Positions 3,301-52,891 are shown, counted from the stretch's first letter. The stretch: DNA of 52,935 nt from a phage (GCA_024614105.1 GCA_024614105.1_4894.1), one strand, 5' to 3'. Numbers and translations are program-made. Notes: generated from the letters alone by a model not told the origin.

Positions 3301-3329
3301 TTTACTTTCGGTTTACCTGGCTATATAAT
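3301..3329 (+). promoter_or_regulatory. sigma70-type promoter (TTTACT-N17-TATAAT)
   Basis: -35 TTTACT 3301-3306, -10 TATAAT 3324-3329; upstream of scaffold-capsid genes. Confidence 0.55.
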
Positions 3330-3336
3330 CCTTCAT

Positions 3337-3410
3337 GTCAACCGCGCAACAGCCGGCCACGAGAGTCTGCAGGGCTCAGTGGATTTCGGATGGCTGGCTG
3401 CGCGGTTTGA
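3337..3410 (+). other. GC-rich structured leader element (long imperfect stem-loop)
   Basis: GTCAACCGCGCAACAGCC pairs with GGCTGGCTGCGCGGTTTGAC around a 37-nt internal region; between promoter 3301-3329 and scaffold start. Confidence 0.4.
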
Positions 3411-3472
3411 CCCAAACCTGTTCGGAGCCCACTTGAGTGGATTGAGCCCCTCTCATATAGGATTGTAAAATT

Positions 3473-4186
3473 ATGGCACTTAAAACAGTTGTAACTGACC
3501 TTAACGAAGTTGATGAAGGCTTCCGTGGCCTGTATATCAAAGACGACGCGTCCGGTGCGTTTCGTTTGGATGTTGAACCAGACGAAAAAACGCTGAAAGA
3601 ATTAGAAGACCTGCGCAAAGAAAAACAGCGTATGGAGCAGCACACCAAAAAACTTCTCGAAGAGAAGAAAAAAGAAGCTGAACGTGCTCGCCTCGCTGAA
3701 GAAGAACGCGCACGTCGTGAGCGTGATGTTGAATCTCTTGAGCGTTCAATCAAAGAGAAGCATCAGGCTGAACTTGAACAGTATACCAGTCGTCAGGCAC
3801 AGCTGCAAGCACAGCTGGAAGCGCAGATGGTTGATAACATCGCGTTGAACCTGGCTAACCAACTCTCTGACACCCCGGCATTAATTATGCCACACATCAA
3901 GGCCCGACTGCGCGCTCAGGAAATTGATGGTAAGTGGCGTACTATCGTCGTGGATGTTATGGGTAACCCGACTGCTACAACGCCAGATGAGCTAGTGGAG
4001 CATATGCGCGCTGATAAGCAGTTTGCACCTCTTGTGCGTGGAACCAAGGCTGGCGGTGGCGGTGCCAACGGCGGCGGAGCTAATCCTGGTGGGAACGGCG
4101 GTGGCGAACAGCACACTTTCGGGGGCGGGGATGACCGCATAGCACGTGCTCGTGCTAAAATCCAAAACACACAATGGGGCAAATAA
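3473..4186 (+). CDS. scaffolding protein
   Basis: 237 aa, Glu/Lys/Arg/Ala-rich coiled-coil-like core (EEKKKEAERARLAEEERARRERD) and Gly-rich tail; sits between portal and capsid genes. Confidence 0.55.
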   Translation: MALKTVVTDLNEVDEGFRGLYIKDDASGAFRLDVEPDEKTLKELEDLRKEKQRMEQHTKKLLEEKKKEAERARLAEEERARRERDVESLERSIKEKHQAELEQYTSRQAQLQAQLEAQMVDNIALNLANQLSDTPALIMPHIKARLRAQEIDGKWRTIVVDVMGNPTATTPDELVEHMRADKQFAPLVRGTKAGGGGANGGGANPGGNGGGEQHTFGGGDDRIARARAKIQNTQWGK

Positions 4187-4189
4187 GTT

Positions 4190-5167
4190 ATGTCACTGTA
4201 TATTTTTAACGAACAAGTACGTTCTACCGCCACCGAACTGGTCGACCAGGACGTACAGAAGTTCAACGAAGCTTCTGCAGGTACCCTTATCCTGGGTAAC
4301 CAGTACGTAATTGGTGATTACGTTGAGCAGGCAATGTGGCAGCTGGTTGACGGCATCGCTACTCGCCGTAATGCTTACGCAGGCACCAACAAAGTTGATG
4401 CGCAGACTCTGGGCCAGATTCTGGACCGCTCTGTTAAAATCGACGGCCGTGTTGGTCCTCTGAACATTACCGGTACTATGATGCGTCGCATCGGTGCAGG
4501 CGATACTGAACCAGCAGCTGTTGTCGCTGCACAGGCTTCTGCTGCAATGTTCCAGGATTACCTGAACACCACTGCTGCATGTCTGGTAGCTGCTATCGGC
4601 GCAAACGCTGATGTTGTTCTGGACGTAACTTCAGGCTCCGGTGCTGCTGCAAACATCACCATGCAGAACCTGAACAAAGTCAACGCTAAGATGGGTGACC
4701 GTTCTCAGCAGATTCGTGCGTACATCATGCACTCTACTGCGTTCCACTCCCTCATCGATCAGGCTATCAATAACACGGAACATCTGTTCCAGATTGGTGA
4801 CCTGAACGTGTACAAAGACTTCCTGGGTCGTCGTTATGTCGTTTCCGACATCCCGGCTCTGGTTGATGGCGCTGGTTCTTCCGCTAAGTACCGCACTCTG
4901 GGTCTGACCCCGTCTGCTGCAATCGTTCAGGTCGGCGGCCTGTACGACATGGTTACCTCCGAGCAAACCGGTGGTGAAAACATCCTGCGTCAGATGCAGG
5001 GTGAATACGACTTCAACGTGTCGCTGAAAGGCTACAGCTGGGTCGGTCACAAAGCTGGTCAGTCTCCGACTGATGAAGACCTGGCTGCTCAGGCGTCCTG
5101 GTCTAAAGTTGCGACTTCCAACAAAGACACCGCTGGTGTTATGTTGCTGGCTAAGTCTGCAATCTAA
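4190..5167 (+). CDS. major capsid protein
   Basis: 325 aa ORF directly after scaffold gene, followed by a strong intrinsic terminator; Ala/Gly/Thr-rich; position-based. Confidence 0.65.
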   Translation: MSLYIFNEQVRSTATELVDQDVQKFNEASAGTLILGNQYVIGDYVEQAMWQLVDGIATRRNAYAGTNKVDAQTLGQILDRSVKIDGRVGPLNITGTMMRRIGAGDTEPAAVVAAQASAAMFQDYLNTTAACLVAAIGANADVVLDVTSGSGAAANITMQNLNKVNAKMGDRSQQIRAYIMHSTAFHSLIDQAINNTEHLFQIGDLNVYKDFLGRRYVVSDIPALVDGAGSSAKYRTLGLTPSAAIVQVGGLYDMVTSEQTGGENILRQMQGEYDFNVSLKGYSWVGHKAGQSPTDEDLAAQASWSKVATSNKDTAGVMLLAKSAI

Positions 5168-5188
5168 CCCACAAACGGGACTAACAAA

Positions 5189-5216
5189 AGGCGGGCTGAC
5201 GAGCTCGCCTTTTTTA
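5189..5216 (+). terminator. intrinsic terminator after capsid gene
   Basis: GC-rich hairpin AGGCGGGCT / AGCTCGCCT followed by TTTTTT. Confidence 0.65.
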
Positions 5217-5245
5217 TTTACACGTATAAAGTTCTGGTATATAAT
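5217..5245 (+). promoter_or_regulatory. sigma70-type promoter (TTTACA-N17-TATAAT)
   Basis: -35 5217-5222, -10 5240-5245, right after the capsid-gene terminator. Confidence 0.55.
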
Positions 5246-5271
5246 CGGACTAAACTTGCTGGAGGCTTTCT

Positions 5272-5772
5272 ATGGCATACACACTTGTTGTGGAAGACGG
5301 TTCAATTGTTCCGGGTGCTAACTCGTATGTCAGCACTGCAGAAGTTGATGAGTTTATCGCTAACGAAGGTATTCTCATTCAACCAGGAACTGACCCGTAC
5401 TACCAGGCTGCCAAAGCAGCTATTCGACTTGATAACCAGTTTAACTGGCTAGGTCGTAAGGTCAGCAAAACGCAGAACATGGCCTGGCCCCGTACTGGCC
5501 TCGGTGCATGCAATATTGACATCGCGGAGTCTGTAATTCCGCGAGAAGTTAAGCTGGCACAGCTTTATATGATGGCCAGTGTATTGAGCTACGACGGTGA
5601 AGAAGGTGTGCGTAGCGACCAGGCTTTGCGCCGTAAGAAAGTTGGTAACCTGGAGATTGAATACTTCGACTCCAAATCAGGCGTTACCGGTGCAACTGAC
5701 CTTTGGACGTCAGACGTCAAGGTCATGCTCAAGCACCTTGTGGGTGCATCCCTGATAACGCGGAGAGTATAA
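5272..5772 (+). CDS. hypothetical head completion / head-tail adaptor protein
   Basis: 166 aa; RBS GGAGG 7 nt upstream; first gene after capsid terminator and promoter. Confidence 0.4.
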   Translation: MAYTLVVEDGSIVPGANSYVSTAEVDEFIANEGILIQPGTDPYYQAAKAAIRLDNQFNWLGRKVSKTQNMAWPRTGLGACNIDIAESVIPREVKLAQLYMMASVLSYDGEEGVRSDQALRRKKVGNLEIEYFDSKSGVTGATDLWTSDVKVMLKHLVGASLITRRV

Positions 5773-6260
5773 TGATTCGTATACGCCTTGAACGTCGCGA
5801 CAAACAAAAGTTCGAGTTCACCTACCGTGCCTTTAAGTCGTTTGAGGGTCAAGGCGTATCAGTAGGTGTTCATCCAGAGCACAACAGACGTGTAAATACC
5901 AGGGGCCGTATAACAAACGCCGAGCTAGCAATGGTGCATGAGTACGGTCTTAACGGTCTGCCAGAACGAAGCTTTCTTCGTAGTGCTGTTGGTGGCAGGG
6001 GTAAAGGCCGACAGGCAATAAACAAAGCTTTCCGCGATAATGTACCTGCTGTTCTCAGAGGAAGCATGACTGCGCATGAGCTTAACGACAAAATAGGTCG
6101 TATGCTTGTTGACGCTGTTCACGACAGAATGGACAGTGACGTGCCACCGCCTAACACCGAGCTGACAGAAGAACGCAAACGCGGGCCAGGTACACTTAGA
6201 GAATCTATGCAGTTGTATGATTCGATAGGGTACAAAGTTGGCAGAAACTGGAGGCTATAA
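5772..6260 (+). CDS. hypothetical virion protein
   Basis: ATG at 5772 overlaps upstream stop (TAATG); the longer ORF from 5703 would overlap the previous gene. Confidence 0.4.
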   Translation: MIRIRLERRDKQKFEFTYRAFKSFEGQGVSVGVHPEHNRRVNTRGRITNAELAMVHEYGLNGLPERSFLRSAVGGRGKGRQAINKAFRDNVPAVLRGSMTAHELNDKIGRMLVDAVHDRMDSDVPPPNTELTEERKRGPGTLRESMQLYDSIGYKVGRNWRL

Positions 6261-6637
6261 TGCTCAAGATAACTTCGCTAATGAAGGATAAAACCTTTGT
6301 AGCATTAACAGATGTTCTTCTCCGAAATGATTCACGCTTACCAAACGGCGACTTCGAGGACGAGTATACAGCTGCAAAGTATCTGTGTAACATTCAACCT
6401 GGTGCAGCTACTAACCAGCCTAACCTGTTGACTAAAGACGATGGCGAGCATGAGTTCCCACGTATTGCGATATACTGTGGACAAGAGCTGAAGCTCGGAG
6501 ACTTCGTTATATACGAAGACCAGCCATACCGTGTATTCCGTATCGACCCATGGAGTCGTCATGGCCACTACTACGTTACAGCAATTCTCCATAAAGGACC
6601 TCAGGGAGCTCGTTCAGAAGCTTTTAACATTACCTGA
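6260..6637 (+). CDS. hypothetical virion protein
   Basis: 125 aa; TAATG coupling to upstream gene; 3' end overlaps next ORF by about 77 nt, so its true C-terminus is uncertain. Confidence 0.35.
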   Translation: MLKITSLMKDKTFVALTDVLLRNDSRLPNGDFEDEYTAAKYLCNIQPGAATNQPNLLTKDDGEHEFPRIAIYCGQELKLGDFVIYEDQPYRVFRIDPWSRHGHYYVTAILHKGPQGARSEAFNIT

Positions 6638-10674: not shown

Positions 10675-10703
10675 TTTACTTAACCGAGGCGCCAGCCTAT
10701 AAT
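10675..10703 (+). promoter_or_regulatory. sigma70-type promoter with the -10 inside an 8-bp inverted repeat
   Basis: -35 TTTACT 10675-10680, -10 TATAAT 10698-10703; flanked by GCGCCAGC / GCTGGCGC. Confidence 0.5.
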
Positions 10704-10735
10704 AAGCTGGCGCACCCAATAAGAGGATTCTCCAG

Positions 10736-13540: not shown

Positions 13541-13569
13541 TTTACTTGGTTAAACTTACTGAGTATAAT
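13541..13569 (+). promoter_or_regulatory. sigma70-type promoter (TTTACT-N17-TATAAT)
   Basis: -35 13541-13546, -10 13564-13569, upstream of sheath-like gene; flanked by TGGCCA...TGGCC. Confidence 0.55.
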
Positions 13570-18743: not shown

Positions 18744-19644
18744 GGTCAGCAACGGTAAAGATGAAGGCATAATCATCTCAAATCTTCGTGTTACCTTTGA
18801 CATTCAAAAGGGTAACACGAAGCATCCAAATAAAGCGACAATCACAGTGTTTAACTTGACTGAATCCAACCGTTATAAGTTGGCGTCAGGTACCTGGGAT
18901 TACGTCCGTCTCTCTGTGGGCTACGGTCTTGACAACATAGTTTATCGTTTGATATTCGAAGGCGATATTACTCGCGCTAACGACCAACGAAACGGTCTTG
19001 ACATACAGACTGTCCTCGAATGTGGCGATGCCCGTAAGTCTTACAACGATGGCTTTGTTAATACGACACTAGCTGCTGGTTCTACCTACGACAGTGTTGT
19101 TGATGTTTGCCTGGCCAGTATGCCAAAAGTTGAAGAAGGGTACGTCTGCCTTGACAGCAATAAACCAGCTTTCCTGAGAGCACGTACTCTGTTCGGACAA
19201 ACGCACAGCATACTCGACCAGGTTGCTGCTGCCAACAAGGCTACCTGGTCTATACAAGACAATAAACTCAACATCATTCCTAACGACTCTGTTACTGACT
19301 ACGACGTTGTTGTGCTGTCAGAATCGTCTGGTATGATTGGTGCTCCTCGCGGCACAGACAAAGGTCTTGAGGTTACTTGCAACCTGAATCCTACTCTGGC
19401 CATCGGTGGTCTTGTACAAGTAAATTCTATGTTTACACAGTACAACGGACAGTATAAAATCGACACTATAAGATTTCGGGGTGACAATAAACCGAAAGGA
19501 CCGTGGCGTGCTGACTTGACGGTTCTCGGTGGACAATTTGCGAAGAAAGTTCGTCGACTCAAGAAGCCACGCAAACTGTCGAAGATTGAGTACGACTATG
19601 TTACTGAACCCGGTGTTGACCATACAGTAGGCGGAGGTAGCTGA
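18685..19644 (+). CDS. baseplate hub-like protein
   Basis: ORF track start is 18664; GTG at 18685 has RBS GGAGGA 7 nt upstream and reduces overlap with upstream gene; start uncertain. Confidence 0.45.
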   Translation: MSTSSTKQPTRQFGRALKLEVSNGKDEGIIISNLRVTFDIQKGNTKHPNKATITVFNLTESNRYKLASGTWDYVRLSVGYGLDNIVYRLIFEGDITRANDQRNGLDIQTVLECGDARKSYNDGFVNTTLAAGSTYDSVVDVCLASMPKVEEGYVCLDSNKPAFLRARTLFGQTHSILDQVAAANKATWSIQDNKLNIIPNDSVTDYDVVVLSESSGMIGAPRGTDKGLEVTCNLNPTLAIGGLVQVNSMFTQYNGQYKIDTIRFRGDNKPKGPWRADLTVLGGQFAKKVRRLKKPRKLSKIEYDYVTEPGVDHTVGGGS

Positions 19645-24877: not shown

Positions 24878-24884
24878 CTAATTG

Positions 24885-24926
24885 CTACCAGCAAGCTTGT
24901 GCAGTTGCTGGTAGTGTTTCTTTTAC
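24885..24926 (+). terminator. intrinsic terminator after tail fibre assembly genes
   Basis: Perfect 10-bp stem CTACCAGCAA / TTGCTGGTAG, 10-nt loop, T-rich tail. Confidence 0.65.
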
Positions 24927-24945
24927 GCTTGAGTCGTGCTATAAT
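24917..24945 (+). promoter_or_regulatory. possible promoter of the lysis cassette (good -10, weak -35)
   Basis: -10 TATAAT 24940-24945; -35 TTTCTT at 17-nt spacing. Confidence 0.35.
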
Positions 24946-26068: not shown

Positions 26069-26270
26069 TAAGCCTGAAGTTGTTTATGTTGACAGGGTAG
26101 TCAAGGTTTATCCGCCTGGTGCGTACCTGGTTAAATGCCATAAGCCTGAATTAACAGGTAATACCTGGAAGGCAATAGGTCAGTTAGCTATTGAACGTGG
26201 AACAGCTCTTGATGATTGTGCAGACAAGATGGACAGCATAATTAGCTGGAGTAACAAAGGGGCCGAGTGA
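25995..26270 (+). CDS. o-spanin (Rz1-like outer membrane lipoprotein)
   Basis: Starts in +1 frame inside i-spanin gene; RBS AAGAAGGG; signal peptide with lipobox LNSC; extends past i-spanin stop. Confidence 0.6.
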   Translation: MTKRQKMIRALIPLLLLPFLNSCADKPEVVYVDRVVKVYPPGAYLVKCHKPELTGNTWKAIGQLAIERGTALDDCADKMDSIISWSNKGAE

Positions 26271-26285
26271 TGGCCCCTTTATTTG
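26257..26285. terminator. bidirectional terminator between convergent lysis (+) and replication (-) blocks
   Basis: AAGGGGCC / GGCCCCTT stem around the o-spanin stop codon, T-rich on both sides. Confidence 0.55.
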
Positions 26286-26286: not shown

Positions 26287-26565
26287 TTAGGCCTGCAGGA
26301 AGCCTGGGAACATATCAGCGCGTAAAGCAGCGCCCTTCAGTAACCAGATTTGGTCTTTAGCCTGTGCAAGCGCATTGTCCTGAGCTACTTGTTTGCCGAT
26401 GTCTGCATTGAACTCTGCAGGGTCAACACAACCAGAAGTACCTACACCTAACTGGAAGCCATCCAGCGTTGCCACACATACAGTTACAGTTGTATTCGGT
26501 ACCTGCCAGAAATGATACTCCAGCTTTTCTACAAGAGCATTAACTTCTTTAAAATCTACTTTCAT
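26287..26565 (-). CDS. hypothetical protein
   Basis: 92 aa; TAATG coupling to upstream TraR-like gene; last gene of the - strand block before the convergent terminator. Confidence 0.4.
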   Translation of the reverse strand: MKVDFKEVNALVEKLEYHFWQVPNTTVTVCVATLDGFQLGVGTSGCVDPAEFNADIGKQVAQDNALAQAKDQIWLLKGAALRADMFPGFLQA

Positions 26566-26789
26566 TATCGCTTTCCTTTCTTCTCGTTATACTGCGCGCA
26601 GGATGCACACAATACTGTGCCTGGTAATAGCTGACGACGCTTTTCTTCAATATCATCCCCACACTGGTAGCACGTCAGCGGGCTTACGCCGGTATATCTG
26701 ACACGGTTCGACAGTGCTGCGTCCCGGGCAACTTGTTCAGCTTCAGAAGCCATATCAGTAATGTCCGATGTGCGCATAGCCTCAATCAT
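26565..26789 (-). CDS. DksA/TraR-family C4 zinc-finger protein
   Basis: 74 aa with CYQC-x17-CASC. Confidence 0.6.
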   Translation of the reverse strand: MIEAMRTSDITDMASEAEQVARDAALSNRVRYTGVSPLTCYQCGDDIEEKRRQLLPGTVLCASCAQYNEKKGKR

Positions 26790-31961: not shown

Positions 31962-31990
31962 ATTATACCACATCACTCTCTAGTGGTAAA
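31962..31990 (-). promoter_or_regulatory. sigma70-type promoter with CCAC/GTGG dyad in spacer
   Basis: Minus strand: TTTACC (rc of 31985-31990), 17-nt spacer, TATAAT (rc of 31962-31967). Confidence 0.5.
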
Positions 31991-32010
31991 GCACTTTTTA
32001 CGCTTCTGGT

Positions 32011-32046
32011 AAAAATAAAAAGGACCAGCGTTAACTGGTCCTTTTG
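32011..32046. terminator. bidirectional intrinsic terminator
   Basis: AGGACCAG / CTGGTCCT stem flanked by A-run (32011-32020) and T-run. Confidence 0.6.
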
Positions 32047-32274
32047 GCAGGGTGGCGTAAGGAGATACAAGGCATCGTAACTATGCAACCAGGCAGCGCA
32101 TATGAGATTGGCCAAAAGATTTACCATTTTAATCCCCGCGACGAGACGAAAAGGAGGTGTCATCGAGTAGCCAATCACATATGCGTTACTTGCTGTGTGC
32201 TCTCACCGCAGAAAGTATAGAGCGTTGCGCTTATTACACCGATGGAGTGGCAAAAGCACACAGCGAGTACAACC

Positions 32275-32359
32275 TTAGTTGTGGTGTCTTAGCACCTGAG
32301 TTATTGTGGATAACCTGCACCCGACGGGTGTCAAAAAGATACGCCAAAACACCACAACT
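32275..32359. repeat. long-range inverted repeat TAGTTGTGGTG / CACCACAACTA
   Basis: 11-mer at 32276-32286 and its reverse complement at 32348-32358 enclosing about 60 nt. Confidence 0.4.
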
Positions 32360-32382
32360 AAAATTGTGACCGCCGTCTACAC

Positions 32383-32394
32383 CAGGCGCCTGGG
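32383..32394. repeat. perfect 12-bp palindrome CCAGGCGCCTGG
   Basis: Self-complementary dodecamer in the 570-bp noncoding region next to the tRNA-like element. Confidence 0.5.
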
Positions 32395-32421
32395 GTCAAG
32401 GTAGCGAGCCAATACCCTTTT

Positions 32422-32516
32422 TCAGCGTCGGAGGAATCGAACCTCACACATCACGGCTTTTACCAAATCTCGGTCAGCGAGCAGAATTGAACTGCATTCA
32501 CTGGACACCCTCACTG
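32422..32516 (-). tRNA. tRNA-like element (canonical T-arm; cloverleaf not resolved, possibly intron-containing or degenerate)
   Basis: Minus-strand GGTTCGATTCC T-loop motif (rc of 32433-32443) with 4-bp T-stem and a 5/7-paired acceptor candidate; D and anticodon arms could not be built by hand. Confidence 0.3.
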
Positions 32517-32613
32517 TTTCAACACACCAGGCTTAATTGATTGTTGATAAGAAGAGAGATGTAAGGATGTCCATTGAATGCACCTCCGTAGAGGTGCGTT
32601 CAGATCAGCGCTA

Positions 32614-33129: not shown

Positions 33130-33158
33130 AATATACGTCATTTAAAAGAGTGTGTAAA
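33130..33158 (-). promoter_or_regulatory. sigma70-type promoter (TTTACA-N17-TATATT)
   Basis: Minus strand -35 = rc of 33153-33158, -10 = rc of 33130-33135. Confidence 0.45.
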
Positions 33159-35092: not shown

Positions 35093-35121
35093 ATTATACC
35101 ACTTCCTTGTGGTGATGTATA
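35093..35121 (-). promoter_or_regulatory. promoter with CACCAC/GTGGTA dyad and TATAAT -10
   Basis: Minus strand -10 TATAAT = rc of 35093-35098; -35 weak (TATACA); dyad in spacer. Confidence 0.4.
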
Positions 35122-37133: not shown

Positions 37134-37163
37134 ATTATACACCACTTTTTATCATGGCGTAAA
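37134..37163 (-). promoter_or_regulatory. sigma70-type promoter (TTTACG-N18-TATAAT)
   Basis: Minus strand -35 = rc of 37158-37163, -10 = rc of 37134-37139; upstream of SSB-like gene. Confidence 0.5.
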
Positions 37164-38310: not shown

Positions 38311-38340
38311 ATTATACACCACTTACATGTGGTAAGTACA
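38311..38340 (-). promoter_or_regulatory. promoter with CACCAC/GTGGTG dyad and TATAAT -10
   Basis: Minus strand -10 = rc of 38311-38316; -35 weak; dyad 38318-38333. Confidence 0.4.
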
Positions 38341-39826: not shown

Positions 39827-39856
39827 ATTATATCATTAGTGAGTGGTGACGTACAC
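39827..39856 (-). promoter_or_regulatory. promoter-like element with half-dyad and TATAAT -10
   Basis: Minus strand -10 = rc of 39827-39832; GTCACCACTCAC upstream; weak -35. Confidence 0.35.
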
Positions 39857-39858
39857 AT

Positions 39859-41337: not shown

Positions 41338-41608
41338 CAGTTGTTTCCTCAGGTTGCATGTGCATAGTTGCACCAATTAGTAGACAATAGTTATTGAACA
41401 TTGTACGTAGCGCCTGGCCCGCAACAATATCCGTTATGTCTATTATACCACTTTTAGTGGTGACGCGTAAAGCTTTTTCTTTCTTTGTTTTCTCCACAAA
41501 TGCAATGCTGATGATTTCTTCCGCATGAATTACGTGGATGGTACCTGCAAACTCACCAGTCTTAGCTGGTGCCTGGTACACTAACGACATAGACGGTTGG
41601 TTACTCAC
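41240..41608 (-). CDS. questionable ORF (conflicts with internal promoter and next gene)
   Basis: GTG start with RBS AGGAG, protein-like N-terminal 55 aa, but the frame runs through promoter 41442-41471 and overlaps the next gene by about 97 nt. Confidence 0.25.
   Translation of the reverse strand: MSNQPSMSLVYQAPAKTGEFAGTIHVIHAEEIISIAFVEKTKKEKALRVTTKSGIIDITDIVAGQALRTMFNNYCLLIGATMHMQPEETTDGIEPTRTGIDGHGTAVRQAGESEPLDGTGES
41442..41471 (-). promoter_or_regulatory. sigma70-type promoter (TTTACG-N18-TATAAT) with CACCAC/GTGGTA dyad
   Basis: Minus strand -35 = rc of 41466-41471, -10 = rc of 41442-41447. Confidence 0.5.
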
Positions 41609-42087: not shown

Positions 42088-42116
42088 ATTATGTATATAA
42101 AGGAGGGGAAAGTAAA
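42088..42116 (-). promoter_or_regulatory. sigma70-type promoter (TTTACT-N17-CATAAT), divergent from the + promoter at 42150
   Basis: Minus strand -35 = rc of 42111-42116, -10 = rc of 42088-42093. Confidence 0.45.
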
Positions 42117-42149
42117 TAGATATAAATGTATAAAATACATAAAAGTCTA

Positions 42150-42179
42150 TTTACTCTGGTTTAATAACGTGTATATAAT
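42150..42179 (+). promoter_or_regulatory. sigma70-type promoter (TTTACT-N18-TATAAT)
   Basis: -35 42150-42155, -10 42174-42179; drives 42210 gene and primase-helicase. Confidence 0.55.
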
Positions 42180-45051: not shown

Positions 45052-45055
45052 AATC

Positions 45056-45095
45056 AAGGGCTTAGGTAGATTATATACTTAAGCCCTTATTTTAT
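45056..45095 (+). terminator. intrinsic terminator after primase-helicase gene
   Basis: 11-bp stem AAGGGCTTAGG / CTTAAGCCCTT followed by ATTTTATAT..CTTTTT. Confidence 0.55.
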
Positions 45096-45175
45096 ATACT
45101 CTTTTTGGCTTTTTAAATTAGCTATAATTAGGTATAGAGCAAAAATATGGTCCTAAGCTCTTAATTTATATACTC
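45080..45175. repeat. 22-bp imperfect direct repeat, two copies
   Basis: TAAGCCCTTATTTTATATACTC (45080-45101) and TAAGCTCTTAATTTATATACTC (45154-45175). Confidence 0.6.
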
Positions 45176-45212
45176 ATTTTGAATTTATAATATATGGCCT
45201 CGATAAATAAAA

Positions 45213-45259
45213 ATAAAGGGGGTAATAAAGGGGATACAAGTACCGGATAAAAGGGGGTA
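45213..45259. repeat. three iteron-like 12-bp direct repeats ATAAAGGGGGTA
   Basis: Copies at 45213-45224, 45225-45236 and 45247-45259 in an AT-rich intergenic region. Confidence 0.55.
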
Positions 45260-45262
45260 TAT

Positions 45263-45310
45263 ATTTATTTATTATTATTATTATTATTATATATTATTAA
45301 TTATATTAGA
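45263..45310. repeat. (ATT)n microsatellite within AT-rich tract
   Basis: tttatttattattattattattattatatattattaattatatta. Confidence 0.7.
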
Positions 45311-45349
45311 AGTAATAAAAACAGCTACTTAGAGGCGTCTATATGTATG

Positions 45350-45385
45350 ATCCGGTTTATCTCTTTATTAATATCAGAACCGGAT
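45350..45385. other. 8-bp inverted repeat enclosing a 20-nt AT-rich loop
   Basis: ATCCGGTT ... AACCGGAT. Confidence 0.4.
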
Positions 45386-45449
45386 GAAAAAAATATTTTT
45401 CGCCAGCGAAAAATTTAAAAAGTTGACAATTGAGTGTAAAATATAGACG

Positions 45450-45478
45450 TTTACACTTATTTTTATATACGCTACAAT
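45450..45478 (+). promoter_or_regulatory. sigma70-type promoter (TTTACA-N17-TACAAT)
   Basis: -35 45450-45455, -10 45473-45478; an additional TTGACA hexamer at 45423-45428. Confidence 0.5.
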
Positions 45479-46864: not shown

Positions 46865-46888
46865 AAGGCCTCCACTTGTGGGTTAATT

Positions 46889-46935
46889 CAATCATGAGGA
46901 CTTTCATCAAATCCTCATTGTTGAACCAATTACCA
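46889..46935. repeat. intergenic hairpin element, copy 1 (family with conserved flanks)
   Basis: caatc-ATGAGGACT-ttcatca-AATCCTCAT-tgttgaaccaattac. Confidence 0.5.
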
Positions 46936-46955: not shown

Positions 46956-47156
46956 TTACTCTATCATTACCTGAACTACTATTATACACTCTTTATTGAA
47001 GCGAGTAAACACTTTTCCACCATTAGTGCGTTTAGCCCCAGATTTTAGAGCTGACTGGCACCAGATATGCCACTCCTCAACTGTCAAGAATTTTTGTTCA
47101 GCTTTGGGTGGCAATCCATGGGCAAGGTCTACCGTAGTAAATTTGACTAATGGCAT
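46956..47156 (-). CDS. hypothetical small protein
   Basis: 66 aa from ATG 47156; TGATG coupling. Confidence 0.35.
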   Translation of the reverse strand: MPLVKFTTVDLAHGLPPKAEQKFLTVEEWHIWCQSALKSGAKRTNGGKVFTRFNKECIIVVQVMIE

Positions 47157-47545: not shown

Positions 47546-47570
47546 GTTTCTCTCTCCTATTGATATAATT

Positions 47571-47615
47571 TCAATCATGAACTATCACAACTTTGGATAG
47601 TTCATTGTTGAAACT
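47571..47615. repeat. intergenic hairpin element, copy 3
   Basis: caatc-ATGAACTATC-acaactttg-GATAGTTCAT-tgttgaaactatac; perfect 10-bp stem. Confidence 0.5.
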
Positions 47616-47787
47616 ATACTAACTTTGTTACAATCTGAATTGTCAGCCGGAAATCTTCCATCAAGTTATCAAACTCTTTGGAACCACCAACAGCGTCAGA
47701 AATTTGGTCTTTGACTATCTGGGCATTTGATTCCAGTAATTCAATCAGGTGCGCCAATTCGTCTTCAGTCAATTTCAGATCTTTCAT
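47614..47787 (-). CDS. small acidic helical protein, member of a three-paralog family
   Basis: 57 aa (MKDLKLTEDELAHLIELLES...); ATGA coupling; paralogous to 48047-48205 and 48909-49082. Confidence 0.4.
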   Translation of the reverse strand: MKDLKLTEDELAHLIELLESNAQIVKDQISDAVGGSKEFDNLMEDFRLTIQIVTKLV

Positions 47788-48205: not shown

Positions 48206-48230
48206 GTCTCTCTCCTGTTGATTGTGAATA

Positions 48231-48270
48231 ATTTCAATTGATGGCACTACTTGAGTGCCATCTCAAAAAT
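48231..48270. repeat. intergenic hairpin element, copy 4
   Basis: caatt-GATGGCACT-acttg-AGTGCCATC-tcaaaaattac; perfect 9-bp stem. Confidence 0.5.
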
Positions 48271-48812: not shown

Positions 48813-48868
48813 TTGATGTATCCTCATTGATAGAATTTTTGATAGGTGTCAATCCTTGACAAGTAAAT

Positions 48869-48912
48869 CCAATCATGAGGACTTTTACCAAGTCCCCATT
48901 GTTGGAAATTAC
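48869..48912. repeat. intergenic hairpin element, copy 2
   Basis: caatc-ATGAGGACT-tttacca-AGTCCCCAT-tgttggaaattac; near-identical to copy 1. Confidence 0.5.
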
Positions 48913-49082
48913 TTCAACTTAACCAGAATTGATTGGAGTAACTTGACCCTCACTTCCTGGTCTTTGACATCCCTTCCACTCTCCCTGTCATATTCCAACA
49001 GGTCACTTTCCATAAATAAAGTAGTGTCCAATTGGTCAACCAATAATTCCAGTTCTTCTTGGGACAATTCTAAAACTTTCAT
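48909..49082 (-). CDS. small acidic helical protein, member of a three-paralog family
   Basis: 57 aa from ATG 49082 (MKVLELSQEELELLVDQL...) with RBS AGGAG. Confidence 0.4.
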   Translation of the reverse strand: MKVLELSQEELELLVDQLDTTLFMESDLLEYDRESGRDVKDQEVRVKLLQSILVKLK

Positions 49083-49086
49083 CTTA

Positions 49087-49233: not shown

Positions 49234-49260
49234 CTTAATAGTCACCTCTTGTACTAGTTT

Positions 49261-49306
49261 CCAGTTGTGACTACTGTTACCAATAGTCACTGGTTGAAAC
49301 TATTAC
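49261..49306. repeat. intergenic hairpin element, copy 5 (imperfect)
   Basis: CCAGTTGTGACT...AGTCACTGG followed by conserved flank ttgaaactattac. Confidence 0.35.
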
Positions 49307-49623
49307 TAGTGTTACTATCAACAAGAAACATGTTACCAGATTGTTAAAGAGCAAAAGGTACCATTAACATCTACCAGATGTACCTGTTGACTGGTTAAGT
49401 ACTACCTACCCAAATTAAACCATACCAATACCCTCCAGACCAGTTGACTGGTCACTCAGTCATCACATTCAATAAATATATAATAGTCCAATCCCTCTTG
49501 ATTGTACACCTTATATTTGTAAGTTTATGCAAGTTTTTAGAAATGATAATCACTTGCGATTGAGAGTGGTTCTCATATGCAATTGATATAGTTTCACATG
49601 TAATTACTCAACTCAAAATGGTC

Positions 49624-49680
49624 GGCAGGGGTTATAATCACATAGGGGTGCCACTTAAAGGAGCCGGCGAAATTATTTCT
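49624..49680. repeat. direct repeat unit A (about 50 bp) in noncoding control region
   Basis: GGCAGGGGTTATAATCACATAGGGGTGCCACTTAAAGGAGCCGGCGAAATT; shares GGGGTGCYAC and GGAGCCRGCRAAATT blocks with unit B. Confidence 0.5.
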
Positions 49681-49800
49681 AAAAATATAATTTCAATCTG
49701 AATTATAGACGCTTTGTACTATACCGGCCGAAGTAGTTCACACGGTAATTGTACCAATCATAATAGTTACCAGGGTAATCATTTCAATTGAAATAGGTGC

Positions 49801-49860
49801 GGCGGGGGGTAATTTCGCAGGGGTGCTACCTGCCAGGAGCCAGCAAAATTTTTTTATTTT
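49801..49860. repeat. direct repeat unit B (about 50 bp) in noncoding control region
   Basis: GGCGGGGGGTAATTTCGCAGGGGTGCTACCTGCCAGGAGCCAGCAAAATTTTTTTATTTT; a third partial AAAATTTTTTTATATTTTTC tract at 49947-49975. Confidence 0.5.
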
Positions 49861-50084
49861 TTCTCTATTTTCTCCTTATCAGGACCAATCATCATCAGAT
49901 TGATACAACAGGAGCTAACCTTTTGCCTAACACAATAATAAGTGAAGCCCCTCTAAAATTTTTTTATATTTTTCGGAAATTGTGTAGACACTCACTAAAA
50001 AGTGGTGTACTTTCTCTCCTCCACGCGCTATCATTAATGCGAATAATCAAACGGCCTCACGGTCTCCTACTTGTGGGTAACATT

Positions 50085-50570
50085 ATGAAAATTGTTCAAT
50101 TAGAGCCATATCCGCCTCAATTGGCTATCGTTTGTAGCGAAAAAGAGCACGAAGAGCTCCAAAAACTGATGGATTTGCCTGATTTTGGCAACTGGAATGA
50201 CCGCGAAACGCGTACTGCATCTACCTTTACGTTCTCTCGCGTTAACTATCCGTACCTGTTAATCGTCGTCGAGCTGTACCACCCGGACGACCTGAAGTAC
50301 AACACCATTTCCCACGAAGGCATTCACGTAATGTCATCGCTGATGAACTATGTTGGCCTTAAATACGACCCAGAAAACGATGAATGGTACGCATATCAGC
50401 ATGATTTCATCGTAAATGCCATTTGTAAGGCCCATGACGAGTATACAGAGCGCCAAAAAGCGCCAAAAACTAAGCAAAAAATCGAAACAGGCAATCATCC
50501 TGTGATACAGCCACAAGACGTTATGAACTCGCTTTTGACTGACACTACTGGGGACTTTTTAGGTGATTAA
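50085..50570 (+). CDS. hypothetical protein with HExxH motif (possible small zinc metalloprotein)
   Basis: 161 aa from ATG 50085 (MKIVQLEPY); HEGIH followed by Glu about 20 residues later; upstream part of the longer ORF lacks RBS. Confidence 0.45.
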   Translation: MKIVQLEPYPPQLAIVCSEKEHEELQKLMDLPDFGNWNDRETRTASTFTFSRVNYPYLLIVVELYHPDDLKYNTISHEGIHVMSSLMNYVGLKYDPENDEWYAYQHDFIVNAICKAHDEYTERQKAPKTKQKIETGNHPVIQPQDVMNSLLTDTTGDFLGD

Positions 50571-51237
50571 TATAATCTTCGCAATGGGCCAAAATGGGGA
50601 ATTCGGGTTATCTCCGGAGTTTATGAAGCATCAGGTTGACTCATGCAAGACCATGGAAGAGGTTCGGGCGCTTCCTAAATCTGGTCTGCCCTGGAAATGT
50701 CCGTCAGATATGCTCTTTTTCAGGACTATGACTAATTCAATTGCGACAGAACCAGGCTATAATGCATATCAGCAACTACGTGGACAGTTCCCACAAGACC
50801 AGTTGCGAAACATGATAGCAGATGTAACGGTAAAAATGGTCGGGCATAGTGTATTGTTAGCCGGTCGTAATACGTATATGACTATGAGTCTGCCTATGTC
50901 AGCCCACAGAATACTGCTGCCGGTATCTCGCCAGATTATGGCTTCAGAAGGCTACAATAATCTGGGTGAGATGGCAGCAGACCTCGAATCCAGGGGTACT
51001 GACGTCTGGATTGTAGGCGGTGCCGAGTTGATACTTTCGGCCCTTGAAGAACACGCAAAAGACTTACTCCGTATCGACAACATGTTTATCAGTACGATCA
51101 AGCAATCAGGTCCAAGTGATATTTTAATGGATTGTAGAAAATTAATGATGTACATTGATAGCGACTTCACTTATAATGATGAATATGTTGATAACAAACA
51201 AGTTCTGATACAACGATACAGGAGTTTACACAAATGA
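50563..51237 (+). CDS. dihydrofolate reductase
   Basis: 224 aa; GTG start; N-terminal INIIFAMGQNGEFG, LPW..P.D..FF..T, VLLAGRNTY and VWIVGGAELI blocks match the DHFR layout. Confidence 0.7.
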   Translation: MINIIFAMGQNGEFGLSPEFMKHQVDSCKTMEEVRALPKSGLPWKCPSDMLFFRTMTNSIATEPGYNAYQQLRGQFPQDQLRNMIADVTVKMVGHSVLLAGRNTYMTMSLPMSAHRILLPVSRQIMASEGYNNLGEMAADLESRGTDVWIVGGAELILSALEEHAKDLLRIDNMFISTIKQSGPSDILMDCRKLMMYIDSDFTYNDEYVDNKQVLIQRYRSLHK

Positions 51238-51740
51238 ACATCATAATCGAGGGGCCCGACAATGCTGGTAAATCTACACTTATTGAGTTCCTTAAATCTC
51301 ATACTGGCCGCAATGTTATTCATAATACTGTTGATAAAGACCCCGAATCGGTCATGGCTAAACAGGCCAAAGAAAACGCGTTGGAAGGCGATTGCATTTA
51401 TGATCGTAGCGCTGTTATATCTGAGTATATCTATTGCCTGGTTCTTCAACGTACGCCTGTCATCAATATTAATGTATCACATGTAGCAGATATGTGTGAC
51501 AACGCCATCGTTATCTTTTGTATGCCGCCTGTTGAAAAGGTACTGGCAACTACAAAAGACGAAATGCCTGGTGTTGTGGAAAATCTTGAGGCGTTATACA
51601 ATCAGTATGACAACCTCATTGATGAACTGGTTCTGATGAGCAAGCAGTTCTTCATTTACGACTGGACTGTTGAAGAAGACGGTCCTGAAGCAGCTCTCGA
51701 ATATATCAACGAACGTATTAATAAGGAGTGGAACAAATGA
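51234..51740 (+). CDS. P-loop nucleotide kinase (dNMP kinase-like)
   Basis: 168 aa; Walker A GPDNAGKST near N-terminus; ATGA coupling to DHFR gene. Confidence 0.55.
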   Translation: MNIIIEGPDNAGKSTLIEFLKSHTGRNVIHNTVDKDPESVMAKQAKENALEGDCIYDRSAVISEYIYCLVLQRTPVININVSHVADMCDNAIVIFCMPPVEKVLATTKDEMPGVVENLEALYNQYDNLIDELVLMSKQFFIYDWTVEEDGPEAALEYINERINKEWNK

Positions 51741-52456
51741 GCCCAGTATACAGTAGCACAATCACACTGTCAGCAACCGTAGGGGACGTCAACAAGACCG
51801 TTACTGTGGGTTCAACTAACCCGAACCTGTCAGGCGAAGACCTGCTGCGCCTGGCCAAACGTGCTCTTGAAGATAACGAAGTGACTGGTACCGAAGGCGT
51901 CAGCATCGAAATTAACGTCGAAGGATGTCCGCACAGCGTCAGCATTGCGACCTCTTCATTGCAGGAGGATGAAACTCGTGAACAGCTGGAAACTAAAAAG
52001 TTCAACGACGAGCTGGAATATCGTACTGGTGAGATGTTCAGCAGTGCGCTAAACTGGTACTTGTGCAAGGCCTCGGGTTATACTGGTGCTCCTATGTCAG
52101 ACCGCATGTTAGCTGATATGTCAGCACGTGAAATAGCTAAAGGCTGGGCGCATGTACAGATGCTGCAGGAGCATATCTGCAAGCTGGAAAGCTGCAATAA
52201 AGACGCGTCTGAGCTTATTACTGCCTATAAGCGACAGATTAACGACCTGCAGCAACTGATGGGCAAACGCGCTGAAGAATATGAGGCTGAGATTCGTAGC
52301 CTTAACGGTACAGCTGTTGCTAACAACCGTGCTTTCAGCGAAGAGCGTAAAGCGCTTATTGCTCAGCGTGACGCTGAAAAACGTCGTGCAGACGACCTGG
52401 CAGACCGTCTTAACTTTATCCGTAAGCATATGGATGCTATGGAAGGGGTAATCTGA
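51737..52456 (+). CDS. hypothetical protein
   Basis: 240 aa from ATG 51737 with RBS AAGGAG; coiled-coil-like C-terminal half. Confidence 0.45.
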   Translation: MSPVYSSTITLSATVGDVNKTVTVGSTNPNLSGEDLLRLAKRALEDNEVTGTEGVSIEINVEGCPHSVSIATSSLQEDETREQLETKKFNDELEYRTGEMFSSALNWYLCKASGYTGAPMSDRMLADMSAREIAKGWAHVQMLQEHICKLESCNKDASELITAYKRQINDLQQLMGKRAEEYEAEIRSLNGTAVANNRAFSEERKALIAQRDAEKRRADDLADRLNFIRKHMDAMEGVI

Positions 52457-52746
52457 TGGACCTGTTCGATATGGTCGAACATCCTGAAGTAAACGGCTTG
52501 GCGGAAGCTAAGCCGTTTAGCTGGGATGAATTCGTAGCAGGCAAACCTGCTGTAACCCACAACGGGCAGATTGCATATTACGGAGGCCATAGCGAACATC
52601 CGATGTGCACTCACCTGTACAACGCTATCACAACCATAGCCGACGAAAACGTTATTAAATATGGAAAAGAAGTAATGCCTTTTCTTGTAGATGAACGCGG
52701 TTACTTCGAAGGTAAATGGTTCCCGTTTCTGGTAGAAATGGCATAA
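52456..52746 (+). CDS. hypothetical protein
   Basis: 96 aa; TGATG coupling. Confidence 0.45.
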   Translation: MDLFDMVEHPEVNGLAEAKPFSWDEFVAGKPAVTHNGQIAYYGGHSEHPMCTHLYNAITTIADENVIKYGKEVMPFLVDERGYFEGKWFPFLVEMA

Positions 52747-52862
52747 AAACCGGATAAATATAAAGGCGTCTAAGCTAGTTCTTCATCTATATAAGCTACT
52801 TATTCGCCTTTCTACTGTAGACTTTCTCATCATCTCTCTAGACACTCCATTTTTATATTCTG

Positions 52863-52891
52863 TTTACTTACTTCGCGTAACTCGTTATAAT
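52863..52891 (+). promoter_or_regulatory. sigma70-type promoter (TTTACT-N17-TATAAT)
   Basis: -35 52863-52868, -10 52886-52891. Confidence 0.5.

Follow-up and report, generated by a model that had tools for sequence, protein, structure and literature searches.

The −10 hexamer of the lacUV5 promoter is TATAAT, and GTTTAC is the published −35 consensus of the early promoters of phage T4. The lac promoter P has the −35 hexamer TTTACA with an 18-bp spacer (PMC2613000), and T4 early promoters have been described as "uber" promoters that combine UP, −35, TGn, and −10 elements (Hinton 2010, PMC2988021). These T4 promoters, with a TTTAC −35 and TAtAAT, are read by unmodified host holoenzyme; T4 limits the type to early genes and then uses MotA/AsiA middle and gp55 late promoters. 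Among phages closer to the one studied here, the BP63 RefSeq record (NC_031250) annotates orthologues of seven of our sites as "promoter similar to TTGACA(N15-18)TATAAT with 2bp mismatch", and the paper on S144 (Loughboroughvirus) reported no RNA polymerase and 18 predicted host-type promoters, naming a DksA-type protein as candidate late regulator (PMC7432712). Because of these seven annotated promoters and the same inference in the S144 paper, the core finding was already known: the genome-wide use of such promoters proposed in a sequence-only reading of this DNA is correct, but not new. Host-type promoters are also what is expected of a phage without an RNA polymerase of its own. Both annotations are site lists, without the TTTAC consensus, the cross-lineage invariance, the two promoter classes, or the covarying hairpins described below, and the BP63 record is without the scaffold, sheath, terS, primase, hyp66, hyp68, hyp72, and hyp74 promoters.

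The window, meaning the whole stretch of 52,935 nucleotides analyzed, is a complete, circularly permuted Rosemountvirus genome with 97–98% identity to Salmonella phage BP63 and relatives, and the phage belongs with the BP63-like rosemountviruses of Salmonella and E. coli. We scored a TTTACn hexamer followed by a spacer of 17 or 18 nt and TATAAT on both strands, and detected 10 exact matches: six on the forward strand, at 3301, 5217, 10675, 13541, 42150, and 52863, and four on the reverse strand, at 47009, 41471, 37163, and 31990. The interval 3301–52891 named in the sequence-only reading begins where the first exact copy begins and ends where the last one ends. Exact copies with a 17-nt spacer numbered seven against 0.03 expected from shuffles, and when up to one mismatch was allowed the count rose to 19, where 200 dinucleotide shuffles averaged 2.4 ± 1.6 (maximum 8). 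A co-oriented gene start lies within 150 nt downstream of all 10 exact copies and of 16 of the 19 relaxed ones, compared with 10.7% of genome positions in the background; by our own arithmetic, the chance of all 10 exact copies being so placed is 0.107^10, or about 2e-10. The canonical TTGAC-N17/18-TATAAT does not occur in the genome (−35 cores paired with TATAAT are 10 TTTAC, 3 TGTAC, and 0 TTGAC) and a generic sigma-70 consensus scan showed no enrichment (30 vs 23, 37 vs 28, and 30 vs 28), so the signal is specific to the TTTAC version.

Counting three more divergent but conserved sites (24917, 49985, and 49508 on the reverse strand) brings the candidate promoters to about 20, which bears out the earlier claim of at least fifteen promoters of the same architecture on both strands. 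With two uncertain sites left out, 15 of 20 candidates have TATAAT itself as their −10; in the other five it is one mismatch off in four and three off at 49985 (TACTTT). The −35, T(T/G/A)TACn, agrees with TTGACA at 4–5 of six positions, and the spacer is 17 or 18 bp at all sites. The same hexamers and 17–18 bp spacing are found directly upstream of genes in lacUV5 and other E. coli sigma-70 promoters, and the change from G to T at position 3 is the sole difference of the phage −35 from TTGACA. In the host, −35 hexamers vary widely, whereas this phage uses the TTTAC variant almost exclusively. That TTTAC is typical of strong phage early promoters, as had been suggested, agrees with T4, where, over 100 kb, the strand of the early genes carries nine promoter-like sites with TTTAC and one with TTGAC, and the opposite strand carries none.

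The motif is conserved beyond this genome. S144, Erwinia phage SOI901, fHy-Eco03, and KE25 each carry 8–9 exact copies at syntenic positions, against 0.02–0.09 expected. In an alignment of 24 sequences of five orthologous late promoters, from lineages with ~72–80% nucleotide identity, the invariant columns were those of TTTAC and TATAAT only, at a mean column identity of 52%. This pattern indicates that the hexamers are constrained while the spacer is not, with TTTAC under purifying selection across phage lineages; at sites lying inside genes (19432 and 51149, with 41471 and 47009 partly so), conservation could have coding reasons. The motif is thus real, non-random, and correctly placed and oriented, its hexamers alone are conserved across relatives, and its copies differ between two classes. 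We consider it very probable that these motifs are promoters read by the host sigma-70 RNA polymerase holoenzyme and that they serve every module of a phage without its own polymerase or sigma factor. Enrichment, placement, and conservation in relatives all support sigma-70-type promoters for every gene class. In the searchable literature, we came across no Rosemountvirus with transcription start-site mapping, RNA-seq, or in vitro transcription.

Late-class promoters precede the structural genes on the forward strand. The exact copy at 52863–52891 (TTTACT-17-TATAAT; discriminator CCCGAC) stands before the terS-like gp19, TerL, and portal genes, with a gene start 33 nt downstream and syntenic exact copies in S144, SOI901, fHy-Eco03, and KE25. 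Another, at 3301–3329 (TTTACT-17-TATAAT; discriminator CCTTCA), precedes scaffold and major capsid with a structured 144-nt leader (fold −54 kcal/mol, z −3.0). The exact promoter of the head-tail adaptor at 5217–5245 (TTTACA-17-TATAAT; annotated in BP63) lies directly 3′ of an intrinsic terminator at 5186–5213, and the Ig-domain and major tail genes follow an exact TTTACT-17-TATAAT at 10675–10703 (annotated in BP63) whose −10 is flanked by an 8-bp inverted repeat, GCGCCAGC/GCTGGCGC; this hairpin covaries between genomes (fold −16.8 kcal/mol, z −3.6). Tail sheath and tube have an exact TTTACT-17-TATAAT at 13541–13569, with discriminator GGCCGG. We saw no late motif lacking a sigma-70 −35, the pattern of T7-like and N4-like phages and of T4 gp55: the late promoters keep TTTAC-17-TATAAT. 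The claim that such promoters stand before head, tail, lysis, and replication genes held for head, tail, and replication genes, but the lysis cassette has only a variant, in which TTTAC is wrongly spaced and which relies on the extended −10 TGc (24917–24945, forward; TTTCTT-17-TGc-TATAAT). This promoter stands after a hairpin (24883–24914) and its T-run, and its orthologue in fHy-Eco03 and KE25 is TTTATT-17-TGcTATAAT. A forward site within the baseplate hub gene (19432–19460, TTTACA-17-TAAAAT) is uncertain; the coding sequence itself may account for its conservation. A strong intrinsic terminator at 26256–26280 on the forward strand ends the rightward transcription of structural and lysis genes.

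Promoters of replication genes lie on both strands. A forward promoter for hyp75 and primase (42150–42179, TTTACT-18-TATAAT, exact) stands back to back with the reverse promoter that opens the leftward replication module (hyp74; 42088–42116, TTTACT-17-CATAAT), which has orthologues in SOI901 and KE25. Early/middle-class promoters on the reverse strand precede hyp72 (41442–41471, TTTACG-18-TGg-TATAAT, exact, with the spacer dyad ACCACT/AGTGGT), hyp68 (39827–39855, TGTACG-17-TGa-TATAAT), hyp66 and Sak4 (38311–38340, TGTACT-18-TATAAT, with a spacer dyad covarying among relatives), SSB (37134–37163, TTTACG-18-TATAAT, exact), helicase (35093–35121, TATACA-17-TGg-TATAAT), and hyp59 (33130–33158, TTTACA-17-TATATT), the last three being annotated in BP63. 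The SSB promoter has AATAAAAGTG upstream and a dyad, ACGCC/GGTGT, and the helicase promoter has a spacer hairpin, ACCAC-aaggaa-GTGGT. The operon of hyp57, thyA, DNA polymerase, and a TraR-like protein follows a reverse-strand promoter at 31962–31990 (TTTACC-17-TGg-TATAAT, exact; annotated in BP63), which comes just after an intrinsic terminator at 32045–32018 on that strand.

The remaining sites lie between 45450 and 51177. A rightward promoter at the presumed left genome end (45450–45478, TTTACA-17-TACAAT; annotated in BP63) precedes a 66-aa ORF and RusA, and its orthologue in fHy-Eco03 starts 46 nt from the physical end. On the reverse strand, the small-gene (terminal-repeat) region of low GC contains an internal promoter (46981–47009, TTTACT-17-TATAAT, exact) with an orthologue in S144. 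On the same strand, hyp13 through hyp02 follow what is probably the first leftward early promoter (49480–49508, TGTACA-17-TATTAT), which has ACTTGCA direct repeats upstream and is kept in S144, SOI901, and fHy-Eco03. The operon of hyp14, DHFR-like, and dTMP-kinase genes has a probable forward promoter at 49985–50013 (TAGACA-17-TACTTT), with ~45 bp conserved in five lineages. Within the DHFR-like gene is an uncertain forward site (51149–51177, TGTACA-17-TATAAT), 57 nt before the start of the dTMP kinase gene and present at the same site in S144.

A comparison of six late with 12 early/middle orthologue groups separated two classes of promoter. Discriminator GC was 0.67 in late and 0.33 in early/middle promoters (Mann-Whitney p=0.0012), with per-position values just 3′ of the −10 of 0.89/0.74/0.74/0.78 against 0.27/0.38/0.40/0.24. 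The A fraction at −47 to −36 was 0.31 in the late and 0.48 in the early/middle class (p=0.027), and A was the majority base at −36 in 5/6 late but 2/12 early/middle groups (Fisher p ~0.013, own arithmetic). An A-rich tract resembling a proximal UP element (aaTAAAAGtg) marks the early and replication promoters, along with G or C at −36 and a discriminator rich in A+T, and TGn is often present; their consensus is aa.a.a...gTtTAC, with an A fraction of 0.58–0.82 at −10 to −5 from the −35 start. The UP-like tract was not found in the late class, where structural and lysis promoters read taTTTAC(T/A) and have a G+C-rich discriminator. TGn is the majority state in about 4/12 early/middle groups and otherwise occurs in the lysis promoter only. 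The early/middle class resembles T4 early promoters in its A-rich upstream tract and perhaps in its TGn, but in this phage, unlike T4, the same core also precedes structural and lysis genes, and T4-type switching factors were undetected in Pfam and PHROGs searches. This difference between structural/lysis and replication promoters appears not to have been described before. The G+C-rich stretch after the late −10 could alternatively form 5′ stem-loops that stabilize late mRNAs.

Dyads are embedded in several of these promoters. Spacer dyads were significant in 4/12 early/middle groups and in none of the late groups. Among orthologues of the helicase promoter, the stem is ACCAC/GTGGT, TATCAC/GTGATA, or CGCGC/GCGCG, and the loop is always a(a/t)ggaa, so related phages differ by compensatory substitutions in the stem under an unchanged loop; the T4 site at 2457 on the reverse strand, TTTACTTTACCACAAGGATGTGGTATAAT, has a spacer dyad nearly that of our helicase promoter. 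Within each of S144, SOI901, and fHy-Eco03, different promoters have unrelated stems, and promoters with CCAC/GTGG partly in common are seen in the window alone. Covarying, promoter-specific stems are the pattern of conserved hairpins rather than of an operator that one regulator would recognize throughout; the dyads are real, yet look like hairpins, and this too is apparently undescribed. A hairpin whose 5′ half falls within the spacer or around the −10, and so precedes the transcription start, would be limited to read-through transcripts. At 52863, pairing of the gene's Shine-Dalgarno sequence with the stretch of −10 and spacer is restricted to read-through RNA. Some promoter-embedded hairpins thus appear to form in read-through RNA only, one of them hiding a Shine-Dalgarno sequence, for which we likewise found no apparent earlier description.

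Searches of ~40 proteins of the phage against Pfam and PHROGs profiles detected no RNA polymerase, sigma factor, or HTH family, in line with the earlier statement that no phage polymerase or sigma gene was recognized; the only proteins longer than 650 aa are primase, a tail protein, an Ig-repeat tail protein, and DNA polymerase. The only recognizable transcription factor in these scans was gp51 (26565–26789, reverse strand; 74 aa), a TraR/DksA-type C4 zinc-finger protein (PF01258, E 1e-9) encoded next to last in the leftward operon of the window, before a gp49-like gene (26287–26565). The closest PDB match to it is TraR in complex with E. coli RNA polymerase (6n57/5w1s, E 2e-7, residues 25–73). 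It is like F plasmid TraR (PDB 5W1S, 6N57) in size (74 vs 73 aa), in its C4 zinc finger, and in its SDxxD acidic motif, the N-terminal SDITD resembling SDEAD of TraR. As a candidate small regulator, gp51 would bind the RNA polymerase secondary channel. The established rules for DksA, ppGpp, and TraR predict that a TraR-like factor would inhibit rather than activate promoters with a G+C-rich discriminator. In gp51 (MIEAMRTSDITDM...), D9 and D12 are spaced as D3 and D6 of TraR, according to a study on phage TraR homologues, which are known to reprogram host RNA polymerase (PMC9239242). That study reports almost no direct effect of one such homologue, lambda Orf73, on lambda lytic promoters (PMC9239242), and a role of gp51 in late-promoter timing is therefore hypothetical. 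The suggestion that timing depends on small regulators and promoter dyads thus stood in part: there is one candidate regulator, but the dyads do not look like operators.

Other readings of these data differ widely in probability. That the motif arose by chance or from base composition, or serves packaging, replication, or recombination, might be argued from the unenriched generic sigma-70 scan, but a motif over 100-fold above the shuffle expectation, with strict strand and position bias relative to genes, spacing fixed at 17–18 nt, two hexamers alone conserved across ~72–80% identical lineages, and a match to the sigma-70 consensus leaves this reading effectively refuted, with next to no probability. 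It is also quite improbable that the dyads are operators through which a dimeric phage repressor or activator switches promoters. They do overlap the −10, an effective position for repression, and CACCAC...GTGG is common to three or four window promoters (35121, 41471, 38340, and 49985); against this stand the covariation of stems between orthologues under a constant loop, the unrelated stems from promoter to promoter in the three relatives, the restriction of significant dyads to a third of early/middle and no late groups, and the lack of any DNA-binding domain in Pfam and PHROGs scans of the phage proteins.

If all classes are good sigma-70 promoters, these findings leave the delay of the structural genes without explanation. 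Late-class promoters may instead be closed to unmodified holoenzyme and need an unrecognized phage factor, such as an activator or a small protein that appropriates or resembles sigma, in which case the two classes would be truly temporal and set by a phage protein. The significant class differences at three positions or regions, conserved in five lineages, speak for such a factor, as does the Shine-Dalgarno-sequestering hairpin at the terS-like gene: it implies that RNA reading through from the upstream operon has to be kept from translation, and so points to a separate time of use. The ~35 conserved proteins without assignable function could also include a novel small factor that appropriates sigma, beyond the reach of profile searches, and the fHy-Eco03 screen found mild toxicity in E. 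coli for several orthologues (PMC8145870). The late promoters nevertheless have a complete −35 and −10 set 17 bp apart, which is enough for sigma-70, no motif peculiar to late genes takes the place of the −35 in the manner of the T4 MotA box or gp55 TATAAATA, and sigma, RNA polymerase, and HTH domains were undetected in the scans. We regard this factor as a real possibility, though on balance an unlikely one.

Returning to host sigma-70 promoters throughout, every module would be transcribed from about 20 promoters with a lacUV5-like core (−35 T(T/G)TACn, 17–18 bp spacer, −10 TATAAT). Timing could then be achieved with neither a phage sigma factor nor a classical operator, by a kinetic split between promoters and by hairpins confined to read-through RNA, a speculative proposal to which we give a low probability. 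The two classes may differ in open-complex kinetics and therefore in sensitivity to the TraR-like protein, initiating-NTP levels, supercoiling, or template copy number; the split between late G+C-rich and early A+T-rich discriminators with their UP-like tract might be read by gp51 or by the NTP or supercoiling state. Part of temporal control would act after initiation, through terminator-plus-promoter junctions and hairpins limited to read-through RNA. Such hairpins may insulate adjacent operons or mask the next Shine-Dalgarno sequence, so that translation would proceed only from mRNA made at a gene's own promoter.

Candidate promoters of the TTTAC type, in which a -35 TTTACn and a -10 TATAAT are separated by a 17- or 18-nt spacer, were detected ahead of structural and replication genes alike. 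TTTAC followed 17-18 nt on by TATAAT was matched 7 times in the window against 0.03 expected; the hexamer with a spacer of 17 or 18 nt gave 10 exact matches there, and allowing at most one mismatch gave 19, against 2.4 ± 1.6 expected from 200 dinucleotide shuffles. Every one of the 10 exact sites, and 16 of the 19 relaxed ones, is followed within 150 nt by a co-oriented gene start, a property shared by only 10.7% of positions genome-wide. The canonical TTGAC-N17/18-TATAAT form occurs nowhere in the window, and scans with the generic TTGACA/TATAAT sigma-70 consensus did not rise above shuffles; those scans were therefore left out of the evidence, and the two null results together make the signal specific to the TTTAC variant. 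The genome holds 48 TATAAT hexamers, of which 10 have TTTAC and 3 have TGTAC at promoter distance upstream. Three more divergent sites are nonetheless kept in relatives: the lysis promoter at 24917 (TTTCTT-17-TGc-TATAAT; coordinates are first bases in the reading direction), one at 49985 (TAGACA-17-TACTTT) and one at 49508 on the minus strand (TGTACA-17-TATTAT). Overall, the window holds about 20 candidate promoters: on the structural side they precede the genes for terS-like/TerL/portal (promoter at 52863), scaffold/capsid, adaptor, Ig/major-tail, sheath (13541) and holin, and in the replication module most units are headed by one.

The window is a complete, circularly permuted Rosemountvirus genome of 52,935 bp, from a BP63-like myovirus (Salmonella, E. 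coli); it matches Escherichia phage vB_EcoBD_211, Salmonella phage LSE7621, BP63 and some 40 more at 97-98% identity across 20 kb. In the phage collection searched, about 90 genomes of Rosemountvirus, Loughboroughvirus and related phages gave a match. We compared the window with four lineages at roughly 72-84% coding-region nucleotide identity, S144 (Loughboroughvirus), Erwinia phage SOI901, fHy-Eco03 and KE25, each of which carries 8-9 exact copies of the promoter at syntenic positions where 0.02-0.09 are expected. When 24 orthologous late promoters (those of structural and lysis genes) are aligned, TTTAC and TATAAT alone are invariant, while mean column identity is 52% and spacers and flanks have diverged; leftward promoters are likewise retained, with a -35 of T(T/G/A)TAC. 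This hexamer-only conservation is, on the aligned sequences, the phylogenetic footprint of a predicted bipartite sigma-70 promoter. A helicase query of IMG/VR returned five close loci only, and its other matches (31-47% identity), which belong to other phage groups, were excluded. The window lacks a promoter that lies inside thyA in SOI901, fHy-Eco03 and KE25.

The -10 of lacUV5 is TATAAT, and the core of the window promoters, TTTAC with TATAAT, is of the lacUV5 type. The -35 of lac P is TTTACA (PMC2613000). In 100 kb of T4, TTTAC-N17/18-TA(T/A)AAT occurs nine times on the early-gene strand and never on the other, with TTGAC found once; these counts were made directly on the T4 sequence, whose GenBank record carries no promoter features. 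T4 early promoters, built of UP, -35, TGn and -10 elements, are served by the unmodified holoenzyme (PMC2988021). Given nine TTTAC sites against one TTGAC in T4, it is reasonable to regard TTTAC as typical of strong phage early promoters, as the sequence-only reading had done.

Pfam and PHROGs scans of about 40 proteins, which took in nearly all those of unknown function plus the large proteins, detected no RNA polymerase, sigma factor, anti-sigma factor or HTH family; the only families matched were TraR-like, DHFR-like, N4-gp49-like, DUF7173, AAA_24, Ig repeats and DUF3987. The same reading had proposed at least fifteen TTTAC-type promoters before structural and replication genes and no phage RNA polymerase or sigma factor; the site counts bear out the former and the protein scans the latter. 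Judging from sequence, it is very likely that host sigma-70 promoters serve all gene classes in this phage. This core finding is already, for the most part, in the public record for the phage group. The BP63 RefSeq record annotates seven of the window's sites as 'promoter similar to TTGACA(N15-18)TATAAT with 2bp mismatch', the S144 record marks sites orthologous to the window promoters, and the S144 paper reports no RNA polymerase gene, predicts 18 host-type promoters in all clusters and suggests a DksA-type protein as a possible late-gene controller (PMC7432712). A literature search found no transcriptome or start-site studies of this phage group. Because host-type promoters are expected where there is no phage RNA polymerase, and several sites had already been marked by curators, the core finding leaves knowledge unchanged.

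The sole recognisable transcription factor is gp51 (26565-26789, minus strand), a TraR-like protein of 74 aa with a DksA/TraR C4 zinc finger that is kept in BP63, S144, fHy-Eco03 and KE25. Its top match in solved structures is the complex of TraR with E. coli RNA polymerase (E 2e-7), and its N-terminal SDITD resembles D3/D6 of TraR homologues. One study reports that D3/D6 are functionally required in TraR homologues, that phage TraR homologues inhibit host rRNA promoters and that lambda Orf73 has hardly any effect on lambda lytic promoters (PMC9239242). At 26287-26565 (minus strand) lies an additional 92-aa gene of the N4 gp49/Sf6 gene 66 family (PF13876), which is not in BP63 at that position and is present in fHy-Eco03 and KE25.

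Late promoters differ from early/replication promoters in ways that are conserved. With orthologous promoters sorted into 6 groups for structural/lysis genes and 12 for early/replication genes (71 sequences in all), the six bases after the -10 have a GC of 0.67 in late promoters against 0.33 in early/replication ones (Mann-Whitney on group means, p=0.0012; p=0.003 for this discriminator difference in the window alone). G+C at the first four of these positions is 0.89/0.74/0.74/0.78 in late promoters versus 0.27/0.38/0.40/0.24 in early/replication promoters. Directly upstream of the -35, the early/replication class carries an A-rich tract (e.g., AATAAAAGTG), with an A fraction of 0.48 versus 0.31 in the late class (p=0.027), and this tract resembles in sequence a proximal UP subsite. 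Position -36 is G or C in the early/replication class. Late promoters read taTTTAC(T/A), with A in the majority at -36 in 5/6 groups, compared with 2/12 early/replication groups (Fisher p about 0.013). TGn elements are scattered and do not separate the classes. Discriminator composition classically governs how long open complexes last and how sensitive promoters are to DksA, ppGpp and TraR, so a link between the class difference and gp51 is a testable hypothesis; the established rule, however, is that G+C-rich discriminators are inhibited, not activated, by these factors, which predicts the opposite of late-promoter activation. The G+C-rich bases after the late -10 may instead belong to 5' stem-loops of the late mRNAs.

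We also compared inverted repeats within the -35-to--10 segment with spacer shuffles, and such dyads were significant (p<0.05) in 11/45 early/replication and 1/26 late promoters, concentrated in the groups for helicase, SSB and two genes of unassigned function (hyp66 and hyp72). The helicase promoter stem is ACCAC/GTGGT in the window and close relatives, TATCAC/GTGATA in S144, SE4, fHy-Eco03, KE25 and one IMG/VR relative, and CGCGC/GCGCG in SOI901, with the loop a(a/t)ggaa unchanged across all variants. The stem of the SSB promoter (37163) changes from ACGCCA/TGGCGT to ACATCA/TGGTGT, those of hyp66 read CCAC/GTGG, ATACCCCA/TGGGGTAT, ATAACC/GGTTAT and TACCCCT/AGGGGTA, and stems differ from promoter to promoter inside one genome. 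Variable, compensating stems around a conserved loop argue for a hairpin and not a common protein-binding site, and an earlier view of the dyads as operators is thus not supported. In the late class, the Ig-gene promoter has an 8-bp repeat flanking its -10 (hairpin 10684-10722) that also covaries (GCGCCAGC/GCTGGCGC versus GTGCCTGC/GCAGGCAC) and folds at -16.8 kcal/mol (z -3.6). At the terS-like gene, the promoter spacer and -10 are predicted to pair with the gene's own Shine-Dalgarno sequence (hairpin 52876-52915), at -14.3 kcal/mol (z -1.7) in the window and -21.8 kcal/mol (z -4.6) in fHy-Eco03. Since the 5' arm of these hairpins lies upstream of the predicted start, they would form only in read-through transcripts; promoter-initiated terS-like RNA is unstructured at this position (-2.1 kcal/mol). 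We infer that read-through hairpins may insulate adjacent transcription units or couple translation to the gene's own promoter. Spacer dyads are not general to TTTAC-type phage promoters, since in 100 kb of T4 stems of at least 5 bp occur in only 3/9 such sites. One T4 site, at 2457 (minus strand; TTTACTTTACCACAAGGATGTGGTATAAT) between gene 60 and rIIA.1, has a spacer hairpin ACCAC-aagga-GTGGT nearly identical to that of the window helicase promoter (35093-35121), which could be convergence or a common promoter cassette.

The gene map was built by placing the 76 BP63 proteins on the window. Genes for packaging, head, tail and lysis are read rightward, beginning near 52.9 kb, crossing the window origin and ending at 26.3 kb; the module for replication and nucleotide metabolism is read leftward between 42.06 and 26.29 kb, and a primase operon rightward between 42.2 and 45.05 kb. 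A low-GC (38-43%) small-gene block lies at 45.4-49.5 kb, and only 8.2% of the genome is intergenic. Strong intrinsic terminators at 5186-5213, 24883-24914 and 32045-32018 lie directly before the promoters at 5217, 24917 and 31990, respectively, and a terminator at 26256-26280 closes the structural/lysis direction. Through these junctions of terminator and promoter the genome falls into many short units, headed by individual TTTAC/TATAAT promoters. The annotated small gene at 31963-32127 (minus strand), an orthologue of BP63 gp58, is overlapped by the terminator at 32045-32018 and by the promoter at 31990 and may not be real. The replication module also contains a 486-bp gene-free gap (32128-32613) that is 82% conserved with S144 and partly with fHy-Eco03 and KE25, and where SOI901 has tRNA-Gln and tRNA-Pro; ARAGORN and Rfam were negative for tRNAs in the gap, which may hold an uncharacterised non-coding RNA, an origin or tRNAs that have decayed. 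At 42088-42179, divergent back-to-back promoters read leftward into hyp74 (unassigned function) and rightward into primase; they have in common an inverted upstream segment, ATACAT(W)3-4..TCTATTTACT, as well as late-like -35 contexts ('ctaTTTACT'), and may represent a third class or a joint control region. The 137-nt leader of the scaffold/major-capsid mRNA (3336-3472) forms a long hairpin (-54 kcal/mol, z -3.0), and its start (ACCGCGCAA...) is kept in relatives. Long two-part hairpins between small leftward early genes, at 46872-46932 (z -4.1), 47556-47624 (z -6.7) and 48855-48915 (z -5.9) on the minus strand, have conserved flanks TTCAACAATG...CATGATTGAA and differing inner stems, and resemble the RNase III-type processing sites of the T7 early region.

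In fHy-Eco03, the counterpart of the low-GC small-gene block is an experimentally determined 3.7-kb direct terminal repeat (PMC8145870). By analogy, the promoter at 45450 would begin about 45 nt inside the physical left genome end, and the genes of this block would therefore enter the cell first. Beside this presumed end and after the primase terminator is an AT-rich, gene-free segment (45052-45420) with a (TTA)n microsatellite at about 45262-45290 and repeated AAGCCCTTATTTTATAT / AAGCTCTTAATTTATAT boxes. ACTTGCA direct repeats adjoin the leftward early promoter upstream (49509-49560), and some 45 bp surrounding the promoter at 49985, together with its leader (within 49940-50084), are almost invariant. 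Both features are kept in four or five lineages, to a degree far beyond that of the flanks of other promoters, and may mark regulator sites or the terminal-repeat boundary.

In practical terms, the analysis provides a promoter map for a phage group widely isolated in biocontrol work on Salmonella and E. coli, together with a small set of candidate sigma-70 promoters that are conserved and probably strong. Here a lytic myovirus places near-identical core promoters before early and late genes alike, and neither a sigma or anti-sigma factor nor a repressor was recognised among its proteins. The conserved discriminator difference, the TraR-like protein and the read-through hairpins are concrete, cheap handles on how such phages order expression, and the two promoter classes, the covarying read-through hairpins and the TraR-like protein offer modest new leads on late-gene timing.
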